Notes under the pieces: model-generated | Databases searched by the model: none | Told to the model about the DNA's origin: nothing | Seen by the model: the letters and a program-made list of their open reading frames with translations, nothing else | IMG/VR virus record: IMGVR_UViG_2936028420_000001 | Span: 1,094 to 65,093 of that record | Source of the DNA: a virus | DNA length: 64,000 nt | Reading direction: 5' to 3' (one strand) | Part shown: in pieces, positions 19,790 to 31,700 of the stretch | Position numbering within the stretch: position 1 is the stretch's first letter | How the letters are laid out: every line of letters begins with the position of its first letter | Position numbers and translations under genes: made by a program

Positions 19790-22700
19790 CTAGTGTGATG
19801 GTTGTAGGCGCTGCACTTCCGCGCGAGCGTGGTTCTGCACCTCGCGAATTTTGTCTCTTAGCTCCGTCTCACTCAGGCTCTTGTTCTGGCGCAGGCCCTT
19901 GATCCGCTCATCGGCGCTCTTGAAGATCGATGCCTTGGTGGTCGGTGCCTCGCTCAGGAACTGCCGAGCCTCATCGGTATTGGTGCCGCCCTTCAGGTCT
20001 TTGCGCGCGGAGTTGATGCCTGCCTTGTCGTCGAGCGCCTCTTGCCGCTGTTCGTAATAGAGCGCGCGGTCGGCCTCCGGACCCACCTTGCCGACGAAGC
20101 GGCGCAGGATCGGCGTCTTTTCTGGCTGCCACTCGCCGCCGGTCGCGGTGTTGTAGAGCGTGTCCGCGATGCCCTTGGCGAAGCGGCCGACGCCGCCGGT
20201 GACGGCCTGCAACACATGGTCGATGCTGGCCGGATGTACGTCGATCGCGCCCGGCTGGTAGCTGCTGCCGCCGCTCCATGCGTTGAGGTCTTTCGCGGCT
20301 TCCTTCGAGAACGCGGAATTGCTCTTGAAAGCCTGCGAGGAGTCGGGCCGCACGCCTCGGTTCTTGTCCTGCTCCGGATAGAGCGGCTTGCCGGTCCAGT
20401 CCCGGTTGAACTCGATGTGGAAGGCCGGCCGGAGCGCGGAGGGAATGATATCCATCCACGTCGAGCTCTCCTCGCCCAGCGGGTTGAAGGCGCTCAGGAT
20501 CGAATCCATGATCGCGCTGGCAGCCTTGCCGGGCTTCTCCTTGCCCATCGCGACCGAGACGGCATGCGAGCCGATCACGGCAAACGGCGAGAAGCCGTAG
20601 GGCAGGGGCACCTTCAGATAGCGGTGCCCGCCCATCATGAACACGAGGTTCTTGTCGCGGTCCCAACTCGGGATCTTCATATAGTCGGAGACGCCGGCCT
20701 CGTCCGTGTCGCTGGCGAGGATCGAGTACAGCGTCGAGAGGGCGGCAGCTGCCGCGAGCGCGCCGACGGCCTGCCACACCCGGCGGTGACCGAGCGCGGT
20801 GGTCATGCGGGCGATGCCCTGGACGCCAGCATTGGCGAACATATAGAGCGCGGAGATGGCACTGCCGAGCTCGCCCTTCTTGTTGAAGTCGACCGTCAGG
20901 TTGCGCGCGAGCATCGCGGCGTCGGCCGTCGGGATTCCAGCTTCCTCCGCGGCCATGAAGGCGGCGAGGCGGGTTGCGTTCTCGATTCCGCCGCCGGCCA
21001 CCTCCAGCGCCTTGCCGGCCTTGTCGCCGATATCCTTGAGGGTGTTGACCGGGCCGCCCTCGAGCCGCTTGAGCTTCCGGCCCACGTTGGTCTCGATGGC
21101 GTCCGGATCCTCGATGCCGAAGAAGCGCACCCGGCCGCCCGCCTTGTCGAACCGGTGGAAGGCGTCGACATAGGGATCACCCGGCGCGGCGCCGGCGATG
21201 GCCTTCATTGATCCCTTCATCGCGCCCGGGATGTGCTTGATGAAGTTGCGGACGAAGCCGCGCTGCTGCTGCGCCTGCAGGTTGATGAACGCCTCGCCCA
21301 TGTCGCGGGCGAAGTTCGGAATCATGAACTCCGGATTGAACGAGGTGGCGAGCTTTGCCATCGTGTGAGTGATCGCGGAATAGGCCCGGATCAGCGCGTG
21401 GACGTTGGCGGTGCCCATGTTCTTGAGGCCGCGCGCCAGATTGAGCCCGTCGGGCCCGTGCAGCGCGATCGTGATGGTGCGGCCGTCAACCTTGGTCGAG
21501 AACTCGTTGTCCTTCAGCGCCGGCATGTTGTCGGGGATGGTGGTCACGAGCCCGGTATTCGGGTCGATCCGCTTAATGGGCTGCCGGCGGTTGATGGTCC
21601 AGCGGGCCGGATCAGGGTTGGCGCGGACAAATTGCAGGAAGGTGTTGCCCACACGGTTCTTTTCGGCCCTGACGATCGCCATCTCGGCTTGCATGATCGA
21701 GTAGGCGAGGGGAGAGGCGGCATCTGACTTGCGGCCGAAGGCGTTCTTGGCCTCCTTGCCGCGCACGTTCATGCCGCTGCCCTGGCGCGACATGGAGGCC
21801 TCGTCCTCGCTGCCGTCGGCCCAGCCGCGGAGCGGGACGTAATACTTGTAGCCGTTGTTCCAGGCATCGAAGGTGTCACGATCGATCAGACCGGCATCGA
21901 ACAGGGTGCGGCGGGTCTTGGCGTTGAGCGCGTCGATCATGCGGGCGACGGCGAGATAGTCCGGCAGTTTGCCAGCGTTCCGCAGGTCGCGGATGACCTG
22001 TAGTGCCTCGTTGGTCGACCAGCCGGAGCCGCCGACCTTATCGTGGTCCCTGATGGCATCGTAGAAGTCGTGGCCGGGCGTGTACATGGTGCCGATCGCG
22101 TTGTTGCGCTCGGGCGCGTGGCGGGCCTTGAGGAAGTTGTCGAGCTTCTCCACGTCGATGTCGCGCGCCTTCATCTCTCGGATGAGGGGATCGATGTGGT
22201 TCTCGGTCAGGGATTCCAGCCGCTGGCCGGTGCGGCCGTAGTACAGGCTCTCGGCCTGATACGCTGACTGGCTCGATGGCGCTCCAACCGACTCCTCGGC
22301 CTTCTTGACCCGCAGGAACTTGTCCTGCAGCTGCACGCGGATCTCGGTAGCGTTGATGTGACCCAGGCGACCGAGCAGCCGCGTGCGCAGGATGTCGGCG
22401 ATGGTGTTGTCGAAGGAGTTGGGGCCGCCCGGCTGGAAGGCGTTCGGTGGAGCGTTTAGCCCCAATCCCCCTTCTTCTTCTCGCGGATGGTCCGCTCGGC
22501 CAGCTTGATCGCCGCGTCGCGTCCCGCCGTCGGTTGCAGGGAACGCATTTCGGTCAAAAACTGCTCCCACGTCTCCAGGGTGTCGAACGGCCCGGGCGGG
22601 TCGATCATGTACTCGGCTGGCTTCATGGTTGGTCAGGCCCTTCTTGATGAGATCGGCGGCCTCGCTGATCGCTGTATCTATGCCGGGAACGCGCGATCGG

Positions 22701-25700
22701 AAGTCCGCATCGTCGAAATTCGTCCGATAGTCAATGAACCCGGCATCGTTGAGCACCACGTTGATGAGGTGGTGGTAGGCCGCGTTACCCTCGTCGGCAT
22801 TGATGGAGCCGGCGAGGAATGCCTCTCTGAGGGGCATTTTGAGCCGCCCTCCGATCGCAGCCGTCAGTCGCGCCACCTGATTGACCCGTGCAGTCCATTG
22901 CTCGGGCAGCATGGCCTTCGCGGTCGGGGTAACCTCGACACGGTAGGTGATGCCGTTGTGCCCGTGGGCGTAGACCGCGCGCATGCCGGGCGTGCTGGCC
23001 ATGGCGATGTCGGAATCGCTGAAGCTCCTCGACTCCGGGTGATTGTGGTGCGCGACGATATCCTCGGTGGGGTCGAGCAGGCGCGCGTAGAAGGCCGGCG
23101 AGATCGCGATGAAGCCCTTTGTGCCCTTGATGTCGCCATTGTCGACGACGTTGCCATGAGCGTCGTAGGCCATCAGATGCTCGGTGCTGGTCTCGCGGCC
23201 ATGCTGCAGAACATGCTTCTGGCCGGTTTCACCAAGCCGCCGCGCTTCGGGCGCCGGCGCCACATAGGCCCGCACGAGCCGATCCATGACGGCATCAGTC
23301 TCGGCACTCGCCAGCCCGGGCCCTGGACCATCGCCGCCCGGACCCTTGCCGGCCATCTGATCGAGGAACTTCTGGCGGTCCTCGGCCGACTTGAACTGGA
23401 AGCCCGGGATGGCGCCGTTGCCCTTGAAGCTGGAATAGTAGCCGCCGTTGGCCTTCGCCACGGCATTCATCTGGCTATAGGCGGTGCTCTCGACGCGCTC
23501 GTTCGCGGTCGCGACATAGAGCTTCGCCTTGGTCTTGGCGTGGATGGTCTCTCCGGTTTTGAAGGTGATGCCCTTCGGCGCGCTCGGCGGCGCGCCCGGT
23601 GCCCGTTGTGTCTCGGCCGGCTCCGGCTTGGCGACGGCATCGAGGAATTTCTGGCGCTCCTCGGTGGTGCCGAAACGGAAGCTTTTGGCGGTCTTGACGT
23701 ACTCGCCCTTGGTGGTCTCGACCGCTCGCATTAGCGCGCGGAATCGCTCCGGCCCGATGAAATTCTTGAGGTCGGCCGCGTGCACGTCGCCGCGCTTGCT
23801 GCTCTGCAAGGTGAAGTCGACGCCGTTGATGGTGACCTTGCCCTCGGTCGGGATGTCGATGTCGGGGGTTGCCGGCTCGAGCCGCTGGCCCATGTCGGCG
23901 TTCTCGATGCGATCGAATAGGTCGCCGATGGTCTCGACGTCGCTATAGTCGCGGCTCTTTTGCTGCAACTGCTTGGCGATATGAGCGTCGGTCTGCTTCT
24001 CCAACACGACGATGCGGGCCGAGATCGACGTGCCCGCGCGCTCGAAGGTGATCGCCGGCAGGTTCACGTCGCCGACGATATAGATGCCCTTGGCGGCCGG
24101 GCCATCCATGAACTTGTCGAACTTCGCGTCGGTTGATCCGCGCGAAATCAGCGCAACAATACGGCCGCCGTTCTTCAGGTGGCTCGCCGCCTTCTCCAGA
24201 TGGTCGATCGCGGTCTTACCGCCGGAGCCGAACGGCGGGTTCATCACGATGGCGTCGAACTTGTTGGCGCCCTTGTCGAGATTCTCGAAGCGGTCGACGA
24301 CGACGCGCGCGCCGGGCGAGGTCAGCGCCGCGCGGCTGGCGAGCGAGCTCGACGGCTCCACCAGGGTGCGCGCGGTGTCCTCGGGGAAGTAGCGCGCGAT
24401 GGCGCCGTGCCCGGCCGACGGCTCAAGGATCTTCTCGCCTGATTTGATACCGGCGAACTCGACCATCTTGAGGCCGATCGGCTCCGGCGTGGCGTAATAG
24501 TCAGTACCCTCGCGCTGATCGCGCCGGCCGGTGGTCTTGCCGTTCGCGAAATAGTGCGTCTTGGCCTTGTCGAATTCTGAGACGCTGTGCGAAAGCGCGC
24601 GGTCGATCTCCTTGCCGCCCTTGCCTTCGCCCGGCTCCGGTGCGAAGTCCCCGGCGCCGGAGAAGGCGTCGATGAAGGATTGCCGGATGGTGCGGGCCTG
24701 ATCGCCCAGGGCGAGGTTTTCCGCGGTGCCGGCGCGCTCCGCGATCTTGCCGGCGAACGTCCAGCGCTCCCAATCGGTGCCGGTGTTCATGTAGCGGAAG
24801 ATCGCATCGGACGACTGGCCGACGCGATAGATGCGGCCTTCCTGCTGGATCGAGGTGGTCGGCCGGATCGGCATACCGAGATTGAGCAGCACGCGCTGCT
24901 TCTTGCCGGTGGTGTCGTGCAGGCTGATGCCCGCCTCGCCAGCGGCCGACTGCACGATGATGATGTCGCGGCCGGAGTTGTCGTCGTTGAACAGTGCCTT
25001 GTCCAGATTCCGAACCTTGTTCGAGACGGTGCCGTTGTAGACCATGGCGTCGGGGAATGCCTTGGTCAGCTCGGCGATCGGCGCGTCATAGTCCGAGAAC
25101 TTCAGATCCTTGATGTACGGATTCTGCGCGCGGAAATCGTCGTAGAGGTCTTTCAGTTTCACCTCAGACGGTTTGCCATCCACGTAGGTGGTGACCTTGA
25201 CCGACGGCGGTACCGCGAGATCGAATGGGTTGATGCCGCCGCCCTCGTTATAGTCGTGGAACACCACGATCTTTCGGCCGAGATCGAGGGACTGCCGGAT
25301 GAACGGGACCGCCGCGCGCGCCTTGATGGCTTCGAGCAGACGCATGCGCGTCAGATAGTCGAACTGTTTCGAGATGACTTCGTGCAGCGGCCGGTACCGG
25401 CCGCCCTCGGCCTCCTGAAGGAAGCTGAGGGCTTGGTCGATCTGTTGGCCGACGGCATCGTGTGCGAGCACGAACTTGCGGTCATAGTCCTTGTCCACGG
25501 TCAGCGCTCGGCCGGACAGCGAGCCCTGCTTCTTCAGGTACTCGTGAAGCTGGCGCTCCATCACCTCGGATTTGACATCGGCGTCCGGCTTGGTGAGCCG
25601 GTTGGTCCGCATCCGGTAGCCGAGATGCTGCATGTAGAACGCGGCGCGGCCGTCGCCGGAATTGTAGCGCGATCCGGAGCGGTCCTTGTCGAACTCGAAC

Positions 25701-28700
25701 AGGTACCCCTCGGCATAGTCGAGGGAGAAGTGATATGCGAACGGCGTCGCGCTCATGAACAGCGCCTTGGGGCGCTGCTCGTCCCGCCACTTTTCGATCA
25801 GCGGCGCGGCTTTCTTCTCGAACGCTGCATAGGCCGCGCCCTGTTCGTTCTTCGGCAGATGCTCGATGCGGTCATAGTCGGCGCGCAGCACCATGCGGGC
25901 GCGCTCCGTCAGACCATCAGGGTGCTTGGTGATGGCGCGAAGCGTGCGCAGTGCTTCAGTGACGGTACCGTTCTGATCGGACGAAAGCTTGTGCGCCTCA
26001 TCCGGAACGACCAGATCCCACTCGCGATCAGCGAGCGTACGGTTGGCACCGAGATTGGCATAGGTGGTGCCGACCAGACCTTTTCGACCATTGCTCGCGG
26101 TGTCGTCGAGCACCCGCATGTCGAGACCAAGGTCTTTGGCCGACTTCACCCAATCCATCAGGATGCCCTGCGAGGGCGCGACCACCAGGGTGTTCGTCTT
26201 GCCCTTCATCGCGAAGCGCTTGATGACGCCCAGGCCGGAATAGGTCTTGCCGGTACCGGTGCCGTTGGTGAACAGCATGCCGTGGCCGTCGGGCTTCGCG
26301 TAGCGCTGCTCGGCTTTCTGCACGTCGGTGTGCTGCTCGGGGAACAGCATCGGCAGCGTGTCGGCAATGTTGCCGAGGTCGCCGGGCTTGACCGCGATGC
26401 CTTCGGCCTTGCGCTGACGCTCGCGGCGCGCGTTTAGGTCGGCGTCTTTTTGAGCATTTCGGACAGCTTCATCAGTTGCCCCGTCGTCAAACGAAAATCC
26501 CTTCTCGCTATCGTGAGAGCTTCGGCTCGACTCTCGATCGGCGGGATCGCTACCCTCATCGACGGGTTCGCGAGCAGGAAGTTCGAGATGGCCTGATGCT
26601 CCCACAACAGGGGCATGATCTTGAGGTACGCGCTCGCCACTTGCGGGTCGTTCGTCTCCCGCGTCAGCCGGGCTTCCTCGTTCTCCAGCGCCTTGTCCAG
26701 TTGATCCTGCGGCAGCGGGAACATCTGCTTTGCCCAATCCGTCGCGAGCTTCTGGCTCTCCGCGATCTGATTCCAGTACGTCGCTGCGGCTTGGTGCATC
26801 GATAGTCTCCTTGCCGGAGGTCACGTCCTCGGTGAACCGGCGAATATACGGCTTCATCGCCCGGATGGCGTCAGCATCCATGCCGGCGACGCTCAGATGG
26901 CGCACCAGCGCCCGCACCATGGTGGCGAGATCGGCACCACCGCCACTGAAATGCGCTACGCCAGCCTTGAAGAAGGGCAGGGCCTGCCGGTATTTGTCGT
27001 CATCGAGCGTGAACGGCTGCTCGCCCTCGGCTAGACCTTTGTCCTTGCCGAACAGTTTGCCAAGCCCTTTTGCCACCTGATCGATGTCAAGTGACATTTT
27101 TGGCGCGAATTCTGCGTCAATCGCCTGATCGAAGATGTCGTCGAAGGCGTCCTTCGGCGGAGCCGGCGGCTTCTTGGCCACCATGTCGAGCAGGTCGGTC
27201 TGCTTGTGACCATCGCCGAACAGGCCGTCGTCGGCCGCCTTCTGGTTGGCCTTCGGCTTGAGCGGTGCATCGGCGCCGCGCTGCGCCATGGTCTTGTCGG
27301 CGGCCTTCTCGGCGCCTGGAATGACGGTCTGCTGCTTGTTGTCGGCGCCGGTCTCGGTGATGACGGCCGGTTTCTTCGGCTCGCCGCCCGGCGGAGTGAT
27401 GTTCTCGCCCGGAGTACCCCACTGCACATTAAGATGATTTCCAGCAACGGGCGCTGTAACGAACATGACGTGCTTGCGATCAGGAGACCACAGCGCTGAT
27501 CCCTTGCCGTATTTCGCCTGAGTCCAACCGCGTGATTCCGCCGTGCTGCCGAAAAGCTCTGCGCTTGTGGTCGGTGCGATATCCGTGTCCATACGTCCGG
27601 CGGCGATCTCGCTCTCGACGTGATCGAGGAAGGAGTCGACCGTCTCTTTGCTCTCGGGCTTCGGCGGAGTGGCGCGAACCGGCGACTGTGCTTCTTCGCC
27701 GCGGAGCCGGCGCCGCGCCTCGATCATCATGGCGCGCGCGGCTTCGCGTCCGAACACTTCCTCGTAGCTGGCGGCGGTATCGACGGCCTCGCGTCCATAG
27801 GTGGAGCGCTCGCCCTGCAATGCCTTGATGGCATCCTCGGGCTTCTGCTTCTTCTTGAGCTTGGCCTTGCCGCTGCGGATGTCGGCGATCTTCTCGTCGA
27901 TCGCACGCACCTGGGACAACGCGGACATGATGCCGTTCATGCCCTCGTCGACGACGCCGACAACATTCTCGACGTCGAAGTGCTCGCCATCCTCGATATC
28001 GAAAACCGAGCGGCCCTCGCGTGCGAGTGCATCGAGCACCTTCGGGTCAGGTGCTGGCCATGTGTCGTTGAAGTCCCACGGGCCCTTGCGCGAGAGCGTG
28101 ACGTGCACGGTCTCGTCGCTGTCTCCGGCTGGAATGTCGGCGCTGGTACCGTCTAGATCGCGGAGGGATCGCTCGGCTTCGGCGGAATCTTCGGCGCGGC
28201 CTTCGCGACCTGTACGGGCGGCGTTGCTGCCGGTGTCGGGCTGTTCGCCTTTGGCGTCGGGCTCGGTGCGTCCGGCGTCATTCCGCCGGTCCCCGCCTTC
28301 TGCGCCAGCAACCGCGTCGCCTGGGCGAGGCTCGCGAGGCGCAGCTTCTTCAGGCCCGTGGCCTTCTGCGCCTTCGCGTGCAAGGTTGTCGCCATAGCCT
28401 GATGCTGCTTGCGCGTAAATCTCATCGTCAACCTCGTGACCATAGATAGCATGGAATTCGGCCTGCGCATCCTTTTCTTCGGAGATCAGCTGCATGACCG
28501 CCGTTTCGACCGCCTCGGGCGCGTCGAGCTCGGTCGACGACATCAGTTGCAGCGCGCGCGCCTTGATCTCCGGCGCCAAGTGGCCGTGGCCGGTGCGCTC
28601 GAGCGCATCGACGAACTCTTGGATCTTCGCTTCTTCGTGAGCGCCGCGTTCAGCCTCGGCTGATTGCTCGGCCTTGGTCTTGGTGTCCTCGTGGCCTTCC

Positions 28701-31700
28701 GGATAGCGATGCTGTCCGCGGATTCCGTCATCGATCGCGTCGAGAAATTCCGCGACCGTGCTGGTGCCTTCGGCGGAGCCTCGGAAATAGCCTGCTTCCT
28801 CGGCCGCCTCGCGCGCGCGGTCGAGATCCATGCCGCCATCTTTGACCAGCTTGCGGCGGGGCGGGAACCCCTGCATCGCGACGGAATGCTTGTGGGCATC
28901 CATCACCGCGAGTTCCGGATGCGGCTTCAGGCCGCCCTTGCTGGCGATGAATTGGAGCAGGTTTTGGGGCTCTTTCGCGCCCGTTTTTGCCGTTTTGTCC
29001 CGGCCGCGCCCTTGTTGCGGTGCAGCAGGTTCCGAACCTATGTTATTGACTACGGCCGGAGTCGCCTGTTTGGTACCGGCTAGGGCAGCATCTTTAGGAA
29101 GCGAAGGGTTACCCCCCAGCGCATCTTGGCCGCCCTGTAAGGCCTTGTCCGGAGTGTGATGGCTCTCGGATTTGGTTAAGGCGGGCTCCGGAGTGTGATG
29201 GCTCTCGGGGCCCGCCGCACCAATCTCTTTGACCGGTTTCGTTGTGTCGGTTTGCAACCAAGCCTGAAACTTCTCAGGCGTCATTGCAACAACGTGACCA
29301 ATGCGACTTTCGCCGTGGTCACTGTACGAATCCGCATAGGCCCGCATCGCTGCATCGGGCCCTGGGAATCCGATCATAATCTTGTGTTCATCCCACGCGC
29401 CCGTTTTCGGGTCGTGCTGATCGATGACGAAGATATCGCCGCCGGGCCCAAGATGTACGTCGAGCGGCTGACCGTCGCCGCCGACTGTGCCCTTAATCCG
29501 ACCGTAAGGGTACTTGAGCGTGACCTCCCACGGATTACCGTCTGGATCGACGCCTTTACGAACTTGCCCGGCGCCGGTCTCGACCGAGATCGAGTGCTTG
29601 CCGACAAGCCCGAGAGCGGGGATTTCAAGGTGAGTGTGCCGGTAGTTTTCAGCTTCCGCCTGGGCCTGCGATTTAGGCTCGTCAGGCCGCGCCTTCATCG
29701 CGGCATCGATATGCTCGACGGACTCAACTCGGATTGGTTTGTCGCGAGTGCCGGCGCCTAACTCGGGAGAAACTTCCCGTCCGGCCCGTGTTGCATCGGC
29801 GGCGGCTGATTTCTCGTCGGAGAGAGAAGCTTGTTCGGAGACGTCATTCCTCGACGCAACCGCTGCCTGATCGCCCCCTTCGACAGCCCCATTCTGATTG
29901 CCGCTTGCGATGCGTTTTCCGTCACCCCATTCACTGTTACCATCACGACGTTCCTGCGGTTCTCCGCCTGCTGGGCTCTTGTCGCCCACTGCATGTTCCC
30001 CGGAACGTAACCCTTGTCGTTCTCGATCCGATCCAGCGACAGATCGGGGCTCGGACGTCGACCCACCGCCATCAAGAACGTCGGGAAGTCGTTTTCCCAC
30101 TCCAGAGCCATCTTGATCCCCCTCGCTCCGTAGTTCTTGTACGCGTGATCCGTCGGGTTGTTGCACCTCCCCTTGATGTTCTTCCAGATCTTGTATTCCG
30201 GCAGCCTGCTCATCCCGTGCTTGGTTGGGTACGTCATTCTTCTCTCCCGGCGATGGTCGCGACCTGCCAGTTTTCATGGCGGCCTGATACGCCTTGCTCC
30301 GCTGTTCCGGAGTCATAGCCTTGACCCAAGATGGGTCCCAGCCCTTCGCAATCAAGGCATCGCGCTCTGCTCGATCAGTCGCAACAGCCTCGCGAGCGGC
30401 TTTTTCGTCTGCGGTTTCCGGCTTCGCCGTATACCCCGTGGACGAAGTATCCCTCATCTGTTCATTCACAGCATTGAACAGATCGGCGTCCGACATCTTG
30501 CTGACGTCGACGCTCGGATCGAACATCCGGTGCAGCTTCTCCATCTTCGCGCGCATCCGCGCGTCCATGGTGTAGTCCGCACCCATGCCCTCGCCGGTGC
30601 CGGGGGGCGGCTTGCCGGGCTCGGGGCCCTGTCCGGATCGCTGGTTGGATTGTTGGTTGCCCGCACCGCCTGGCCCAGGCTGAGGGCCGCCGCCGGGATT
30701 GGGGCCAGCGCCAGCCGCTCCAGCCTGATCGTCCCAGCCACGGCGCTGCCAGTCGCGGGCTTCCTGCTCGGCGCGCGCGCGGGCCGCATCCGGTCCCGGG
30801 CCGCCCATGTCGGGTCCGCCGCCAGGGAGCGCGCCGCCCGGCGCCGGGGAGGCGCCGCTAGTGTCGCTGGAGGTGTCCTGCCGGGTCTCCGGGCCCCTGC
30901 GCTCGAACGCATGATGCAGGCCGCCCATGCCGGCGCCGAGGATCAATTCCGCGATGATGCGCTTCTGATCGAGTGTGTAGCCAGCCTTCGGATCGTAGTC
31001 CTTGGCGATCTCTTGGAGGATGGCTTCCTGCGCCTCGCCGAGCGTCGTGAATGCGGCAGCGGAGACCGCGACCTTCGCGATCAGGCCCTGCGCATATTTG
31101 CCGGCACCGAGCGGCAGGCTGCCGAGCACGCCGGCGACCAGGGCGGACTTCGCCGCCGTCGCATTGGCCTCGTCGTCGGTCTTGCCTGCGGCCTTCGATG
31201 CCTCGAAGACGCTGCCGTAGGTGTCGAGCGCCATGCCGCTGGCGGCGGCGGTAAGACCGACCAGCGGGCCTGCGGCGAGCGTCGCTGCACCATAAGCGGC
31301 GATCGAGCCCGCGCCGGTACCGATCCGGCCGCCGATTGAATCCTTCTCCTGCGGCGTCATCGGCGCGACGGTTTGCGCAAAATCCTGTGTTGCCTGTCCT
31401 GCCTTGTAGAGCGTGCGATCCTGCAGCGGCTTCGCCGGTACCGCGGCGGCCGGCGCATTGACCATGCCGGTGGCATTGCCCATGGCGTCGTACTGCGGCG
31501 TCTCAGGCTGCTCGGGGATGCCGTTGTCGTACAGCGCGGCCGCGCCCTTGAGCGTGCCGCCAGCAGTCGAGATCGCGCCGTGCGGGATGCCCTTGGCGGC
31601 CGCGACCGCCTGCCGGCTGATCGTGAGCGGCGGGACTTCCGGACCTTCCGGCGTGACGGGCGTGCCGAACTTGGAGAGGTCATCCGTCGACGGCTCGGGC

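Follow-up and report, generated by a model that had tools for sequence, protein, structure and literature searches.

We analyzed a 64,000-nucleotide stretch of viral DNA (the window; positions 1,094 to 65,093 of the IMG/VR virus record IMGVR_UViG_2936028420_000001), in which one giant gene encodes a large polyvalent, DarB-like phage protein. The protein has Pfam matches to LPD38/PLxRFG, InPase, ResIII (an SNF2-type helicase), Helicase_C_4, and MTS (a small methyltransferase domain), and its homologues carry the annotations "DarB-like antirestriction" or "PLxRFG protein." A second, complete open reading frame (ORF), here called B, lies entirely inside this gene on the same strand and in the +1 frame (31942 - 26799 = 5143, remainder 1). 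The layout of the locus is given in table 1. A preliminary description made from the letters of the window had pointed to this nested 121-amino-acid ORF, to an AAGGAG placed 7 nucleotides before its ATG, and to a stop just ahead of the helicase. The coordinates, stop, and peptide proved to be the same in our analysis, the AAGGAG was confirmed, and the helicase-methylase homology was found to begin a few codons past the stop, with ResIII starting at giant residue 1866. The description had also regarded B as a nested gene with its own ribosome-binding site, and this received strong support from the enrichment of Shine-Dalgarno (SD) motifs, a switch in codon bias, conservation of the nested frame, and the pattern of substitutions, as set out below.

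Table 1. Features of the giant gene around the embedded ORF B (window coordinates)
Feature	Coordinates	Strand	Remarks
Giant host gene, large polyvalent DarB-like phage protein	19790-31942	minus	4,050 codons, open frame
HNH-homing-endonuclease-like ORF	29758-30237	minus	Complete, 159 amino acids; also +1 within the giant gene
Small helical domain A	26807-27001	minus	Giant residues ~1648-1712, giant frame; ends 3 residues before the start of B
SD-like AAGGAG	26807-26812	minus	7-nucleotide spacer, then the ATG of B
ORF B	26434-26799	minus	ATG 26799-26797, TAA 26436-26434; 121 codons plus TAA
Giant-frame spacer over B	26432-26799	minus	Giant residues ~1715-1837; flanked by the upstream helical domain and the helicase
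Helicase-methyltransferase module	24023-26425	minus	Giant residues 1840-2640; directly after the stop of B

We compared the start of B in its relatives with other ATG codons from the same loci. An SD-like motif was present 4-18 nucleotides upstream of 96% of 70 distinct B starts, compared with 23% of 8,122 control ATGs, and a strict SD motif was present in 73% and 5%, respectively. The ATG of B was kept in every locus examined.

Codon bias also changed at the borders of B. Along most of the giant gene, the G+C content of third codon positions (GC3) in the giant frame was 0.8-0.95; over 26450-26810 it fell from about 0.85 to 0.37-0.42 and the GC3 of the nested frame rose to 0.8-0.9, and this switch coincided exactly with the borders of the ORF. 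A high GC3 in the +1 frame could stem from a linker rich in Gly, Asp, Glu, and Arg, but such a linker cannot account for the giant-frame collapse of GC3, which is expected if those bases are the second codon positions of another protein. The presence of an open nested frame was, taken alone, within chance for the window (63% GC), in which this frame stayed open in 65% of synonymous resamplings that held the giant residues fixed. The same chance was 0.003 in a Vibrio phage of 46% GC.

Relatives of B at 30-80% identity were found in six named phages, in more than 100 IMG/VR loci, and in five giant-ORF loci of bacterial genome assemblies, which are presumably prophages. All of them lay +1 to the giant frame, started with ATG, and had a stop. 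By tblastn, the identity to B was 50% in Ruegeria phage 45A6, 36% in Klebsiella phage ZX1, 34% in Vibrio phages 1.232.O and D274 and in Pseudomonas phage Skulduggery, and 30% in Serratia phage Parlo. In the five records checked (45A6, ZX1, 1.232.O, Skulduggery, and Parlo), the match lay inside the annotated giant coding sequence at an offset of 1 modulo 3, and B was annotated in none of the records examined, including these five. In the first ten distinct loci, the match ran from an ATG after a purine-rich tract to a stop, and the giant frame continued for thousands of codons. We extended the comparison to 58 IMG/VR loci that were picked by B patterns (49 distinct; GC 0.41-0.69). The ATG start was present in all 58, a stop followed after 120-153 codons in 57 (the remaining ORF left the contig end), and in 56 the giant frame ran open through B, contig ends cutting it in the remaining two. 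Thus, the lack of conservation among homologs that the preliminary description had named as grounds for giving up the gene was not seen, since the nested frame was kept in every relative examined. The recurrence of this arrangement in every relative also led us to reject a double frameshift or a sequencing error as the origin of the overlap. As to the window itself, at least six soil-metagenome runs, which belong to different studies, contained contigs with DNA identical or nearly identical to positions 25800-27400; three of these runs may be the source of the window itself, and no sequence variants were seen over 26100-27100 among the contigs compared.

To avoid ascertainment through B, we picked 80 IMG/VR loci by the helicase-methylase module alone. 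Each of the 80 had B upstream of the module, read from the same strand and +1 to a giant frame that stayed open over it, and each B started at ATG; the gap between the end of B and the helicase match was 3-126 nucleotides in 70 loci and 360-939 nucleotides in the other 10. In the phage collection, the helicase-methylase query matched exactly the eight records that B matched. No relative of the helicase-methylase module without B was found among the 80 IMG/VR loci and the eight phage records. The divergence of B in these comparisons (30-50%) was similar to that of the module (37-52%).

We addressed the selection acting on the two frames by comparing them over the same columns. The identity of the nested frame exceeded that of the giant frame in all 45 pairs (for example, 0.74 vs 0.50 and 0.49 vs 0.22), and the giant-frame alignment of the spacer over B, a stretch rich in Gly, Asp, Glu, Arg, Ser, and Pro, had essentially no conserved columns. 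Substitutions were then counted in 14 independent close pairs. Changes that were silent in B and altered the giant frame were the most numerous (270 changes; 0.082 per possible site), followed by those that altered both frames (133; 0.018 per possible site) and those that altered B only (83; 0.021 per possible site); only 5 changes were silent in both frames, and no rate was calculated for these. Giant-only changes were therefore accepted about four times as often as B-only changes, and the three rates together indicated that a change of a giant residue costs almost nothing extra, whereas a change in B is resisted about four-fold. Conversely, when the B protein was held fixed and codons were resampled with normal codon usage, the giant frame was free of stops in only 0-6% of the synonymous resamplings at each of 10 loci. 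The constraint on B and the avoidance of stops in the giant frame show that both frames are maintained, B for its sequence and the giant frame only for its continuity. Taken together, the substitution counts and the resamplings showed the signatures of purifying selection on B, of stop avoidance in the giant frame, and of dual coding. The GC3 switch, the conservation of the protein down to 30% identity, and the substitutions favoring the nested frame are far beyond chance.

The structure of B was predicted with AlphaFold2 from an alignment of 52 sequences. The model was a compact domain of eight helices with high confidence (predicted local distance difference test, pLDDT, 94.1; predicted template modeling score, pTM, 0.87), which suggests that B, a small protein of an undescribed family, is all-alpha. 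Residues M1, E67, A70, A94, and L112 were invariant in the family, and W9, N10, Y58, and the P63-L64 motif nearly so. By count from the sequence, the charge of B was about neutral, and B thus does not resemble an acidic DNA mimic.

Searches for known relatives of this fold or family gave nothing usable. The preliminary description had proposed a hidden Markov model search as a check on B, and in Pfam, NCBIfam, and PADLOC such searches returned no family at E <= 0.01. In PHROGs, the sole row was at E 0.27 and was not counted. The best match of a sequence search of the PDB was at E 0.18. With the B model as the query, Foldseek reached at best E 2.6 in the PDB and E 2.2 in BFVD, a shape search of the ESM Atlas gave template modeling scores of at most 0.44, and VIA-align against 48,161 chains gave a best Z of 4.3, under the noise level of this tool for helical proteins. 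A feature search of the ESM Atlas was likewise without a usable match, and no description of this nested gene was found in the literature searched. The family is nevertheless large and without a name: a search of 1.84 billion representatives with a B profile returned 568 clusters at 50% identity (E <= 0.001). The top 150 profile matches were mostly 113-150 amino acids long, almost all began at residue 1 of B, and none was longer than 600 amino acids. Gene callers recovered B mostly on short contigs in which the giant ORF was truncated. Reading B as an in-frame module of the LPD type fails, since B is +1 to the giant frame throughout and its own frame has stops on either side.

Members of the family also occurred outside the overlap. 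One free-standing copy with 61% identity (L011:8001-8366) lay on a 17-kb metagenome contig with no giant ORF around it, and its neighbors included genes for an Xre-type regulator, GGACT, AAA_22, a resolvase, and a methylase. Another homologue (L013:8001-8396) was cut by the contig end and was preceded by a 216-amino-acid ORF with long hydrophobic stretches. Both homologues (61-68% identity) were on metagenome contigs without a giant ORF, where large ATPase/helicase genes and a divergent Xre-type regulator adjoined them. In bacteria, B formed the N-terminal domain of a 373-amino-acid protein of Bradyrhizobium sp. LjRoot220 (L076:8001-9122) and of a 539-amino-acid protein from a metagenome-assembled genome of Caulobacterales (L080:722-2341), the latter with long hydrophobic stretches in its C-terminal part; neither protein had a match in Pfam or PADLOC. 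A further set of proteins of 288-521 amino acids (P0043-P0058) was 60-72% identical to B, two being from named Bradyrhizobium and the rest from metagenomes. One gene for such a protein (L084:10001-11566) was located in an integrase/Toprim island beside a type I restriction-modification system, an antitoxin, a DUF6361-ResIII gene set, and other cargo that resembles defense genes.

Several of these proteins linked B to domain A, the small helical domain encoded just upstream of B in the giant frame of the window. In ten inspected proteins, including all seven whose sequences were read, A was fused in frame to B and to an unmatched C-terminal part; the N-terminal match of the fusion-protein A to the window was 49% identical in the giant frame. 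Such an A-B fusion differs from the phage arrangement by a single base, and Met1 of B is kept in it. Family searches with the C-terminal parts of the bacterial fusions and with domain A returned no match. A first type of A was detected in 41 of 138 phage loci, always beside B, ending 2-25 amino acids before B in 23 of them and lying 37-233 amino acids after B in 18; a second A-like type was found 25-560 amino acids upstream of B in 76 of the 138 loci. That A precedes B in some phages and follows B in others (L023, L025-L027, L030, L031, L056, L067, L070, and others) indicated that the pair has been rearranged and still remained adjacent. A short acidic motif of the ALDDIFG or DDLxALFDxEL kind often formed the last giant-frame residues before the ATG of B. 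These observations are hints of a relationship between A and B. An AlphaFold2 model of a natural A-B fusion (P0051, residues 1-225; pTM 0.62) gave a pLDDT of 94-98 for B and 57-77 for A. It did not place A confidently and gave no support to a packing of A onto B.

From these data we proposed a model in which the giant late mRNA would be read in two ways. Some ribosomes would start at the SD site and ATG of B inside this mRNA and produce a compact eight-helix protein of ~14 kDa. Those in the giant frame would read the same 366 nucleotides as a spacer that is unconstrained in sequence, probably disordered, and that would join the variable N-terminal part of the giant protein to the helicase-methylase module, with the avoidance of stop codons as the only selection on it. 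The overlap would have had a single ancient origin and would have been inherited along with the module, and B would act with the module that it always precedes. For the core of this model, namely that B is a real, separately initiated gene dual-coded over a neutral linker, we estimate a probability of about 0.85.

As to the function of B, phage P1 offers a precedent. The DarB protein of P1 depends on small helpers: the 17-kDa Ulx, whose gene lies next to darB, "aids DarB localization" (PMC9024508), and DdrB aids the addition of DarB to the capsid (PMC12810830). Like these proteins, B is small and is encoded directly beside a DarB-type methylase-helicase gene region. However, ulx is a separate gene downstream of darB; B differs on both counts, being upstream of the module and within the giant ORF. 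Homology of B to Ulx was rejected, since an hhalign comparison of P1 Ulx with the B profile gave a probability of 0.13% over 6 aligned columns; the P1 comparison is thus an analogy only. The JC1 paper remarks that the Bcep22-like phages, in which the DarB-like giant protein is a virion component by mass spectrometry, have yielded no such helpers (PMC9144972). These phages were matched by neither the B nor the helicase-methylase query, which indicates that they carry a different DarB-like version. B may be an accessory partner of the helicase-methylase module, serving in its folding, capsid loading, or activity, which would match the P1 helpers; we put this role forward tentatively and at somewhat less than even odds. 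Strict co-occurrence and adjacency (8/8 phage records and 80/80 loci) support the link of B to the module. Thus, of the earlier suggestion that B is a regulator or chaperone of the helicase and methyltransferase, the tie to the module stood, and a role as regulator or chaperone would be putative.

The strongest competitor accepts that B is real and expressed and assigns it a function unrelated to the helicase-methylase, for example as a host-takeover or counter-defense factor; its gene would have been trapped when the flanking genes were fused by read-through, and the linkage would be a frozen accident. This explanation is in keeping with family members that have no helicase in their vicinity, being either free-standing or joined to C-terminal parts of unrelated kinds; some of them lie in bacterial islands adjoining defense cargo. 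The neutrality of the giant-frame sequence over B is in line with a trapped gene as well, and an overlap that is not easily undone would produce co-inheritance anyway. What it leaves less well explained is that B ends so close to the helicase homology in 70 of the 80 loci, though the N-terminal architecture varies widely, and that no relative of the module without B was found among those 80 loci and the eight phage records. We consider a trapped gene quite possible, while leaning against it; the smaller share of the odds that is left goes to other roles. Several of the same points weigh directly against an accessory role. The functional assignment draws only on co-inheritance and adjacency, and since an overlap is hard to undo once formed, linkage alone cannot decide the role of B. 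The family domains without a helicase in bacterial genomes and islands indicate that B can work without one, and no resemblance of B to P1 Ulx, to a known family, or to a known fold could be detected. The case for the gene as such is one of sequence comparison and structure prediction.

Another explanation keeps B as part of the giant protein: a programmed +1 frameshift would add it to the N-terminal 1,714 residues, and the truncated product would end in the B domain. SD-like sequences can also stimulate frameshifting, as in prfB, and A and B do form one in-frame polypeptide in the Bradyrhizobium and metagenome proteins. However, the ATG is found in every locus and Met1 is retained even in these in-frame fusions, the free-standing homologues start at the same Met, and the spacing of the SD motif is typical of initiation. 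No slippery sequence was conserved upstream of B among the loci examined, and in several loci a stop in the nested frame lies 1-2 codons ahead of the ATG, so that a shift site could hardly be accommodated in between. On these sequence features, internal initiation of B is much better supported than a programmed +1 frameshift, which we regard as improbable.

Arsenault et al. (2025, PMC11855218) described hidden out-of-frame genes of a different kind, the ShiLan-type HNH endonucleases, within methylase genes of phages, and B could be viewed as a selfish mobile insertion of this type that survives because the host frame stays open. In both cases an out-of-frame ORF is read through without stops by a methylase- or helicase-type host as an extra loop or linker, and the giant gene of the window contains an HNH-like ORF in the same +1 arrangement as B. 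The order of A and B, which differs between loci, also indicates some local rearrangement. Nevertheless, B was present in 80 of 80 helicase-picked loci, always in the same frame and with no presence/absence polymorphism, and it is thus universal in the helicase-methylase lineage and not sporadic. It co-diverges with the module, is under purifying selection as a folded protein of cellular type, and does not have the look of a mobile insertion; no nuclease motif, family, or fold was found in it by the Pfam and fold searches. We therefore consider a selfish origin of B very improbable. Last, the idea that GC-rich DNA left this frame open by chance and that no protein is encoded there, which the frequent openness of the nested frame in resamplings of the window would permit, is scarcely credible, since all comparative results oppose it and the same openness is very rare by chance in the Vibrio phage.

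Internal initiation over a neutral linker, as proposed here for B, can be compared with other embedded genes. Genes embedded in the +1 frame are classic in phages, as with Rz1 inside Rz. An embedded Rz1 has been described for the Bcep22-like phages (PMC9144972). B shares this architecture in that it is a complete ORF inside a longer ORF of the same strand, in the +1 frame and with its own start signals, in that both frames would be used, and in that the arrangement is conserved in many phages. In contrast, the two spanin frames both encode constrained proteins that interact, whereas nearly all of the constraint here falls on B, with the host frame serving as a neutral spacer; moreover, B would be a soluble helical protein without a lipoprotein signal, and its host is a polyvalent virion protein of 4,050 codons. 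The host gene is typical of the large polyvalent proteins (Iyer et al. 2017, PMC5512222), in which LPD38, InPase, an SNF2-type helicase, and a methylase are strung on linkers. The domains cataloged in such proteins are all in frame, however, and our literature search found no out-of-frame gene under a linker.

A more far-reaching scheme, which we consider speculative and unlikely, would make the giant gene a product of two virion-protein genes fused across B, with the linker overprinted on B in place of a loss of B. B would then be an obligate subunit encoded in cis, assembling with the giant protein while the latter is still being made from their shared mRNA. Its fold would be a new protein-binding module, captured by bacterial integrative islands either alone or fused in frame to A and to variable C-terminal parts, as a means of sensing these phages or of interfering with them.

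Other parts of the giant gene also showed unusual codon bias. Over the HNH-like ORF, the GC3 of the giant frame went down to 0.43-0.55, and at 22403-22672 (minus strand) there is another stretch in which the GC3 of the +1 frame exceeds that of the giant frame. A 105-amino-acid ORF at 28153-28470 (minus strand), with a rise of the +1-frame GC3 at ~28160-28520, was not counted as a gene, because its translation is of low complexity and looks like that of a wrong frame and the giant-frame GC3 falls only to 0.57; this stretch has more of the look of a plain acidic linker.

The finding thus consists of a conserved hidden gene beneath the linker of a polyvalent protein, which defines a new protein family. 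The gene has been missed by gene callers under the longer ORF, and yet its family comprises at least 568 clusters and has a confidently predicted fold without a match. It provides a clean natural example of dual coding, in which a protein is carried by one frame and no more than openness is required of the other, and it illustrates how an entire gene can go unseen beneath a disordered linker of a giant polyvalent protein. B is the most invariant companion of the widespread DarB-like helicase-methylase module of phage virions and a candidate accessory factor of the DarB-like anti-restriction proteins. Any deletion or recoding aimed at the "linker" of such a giant gene would remove B as well.

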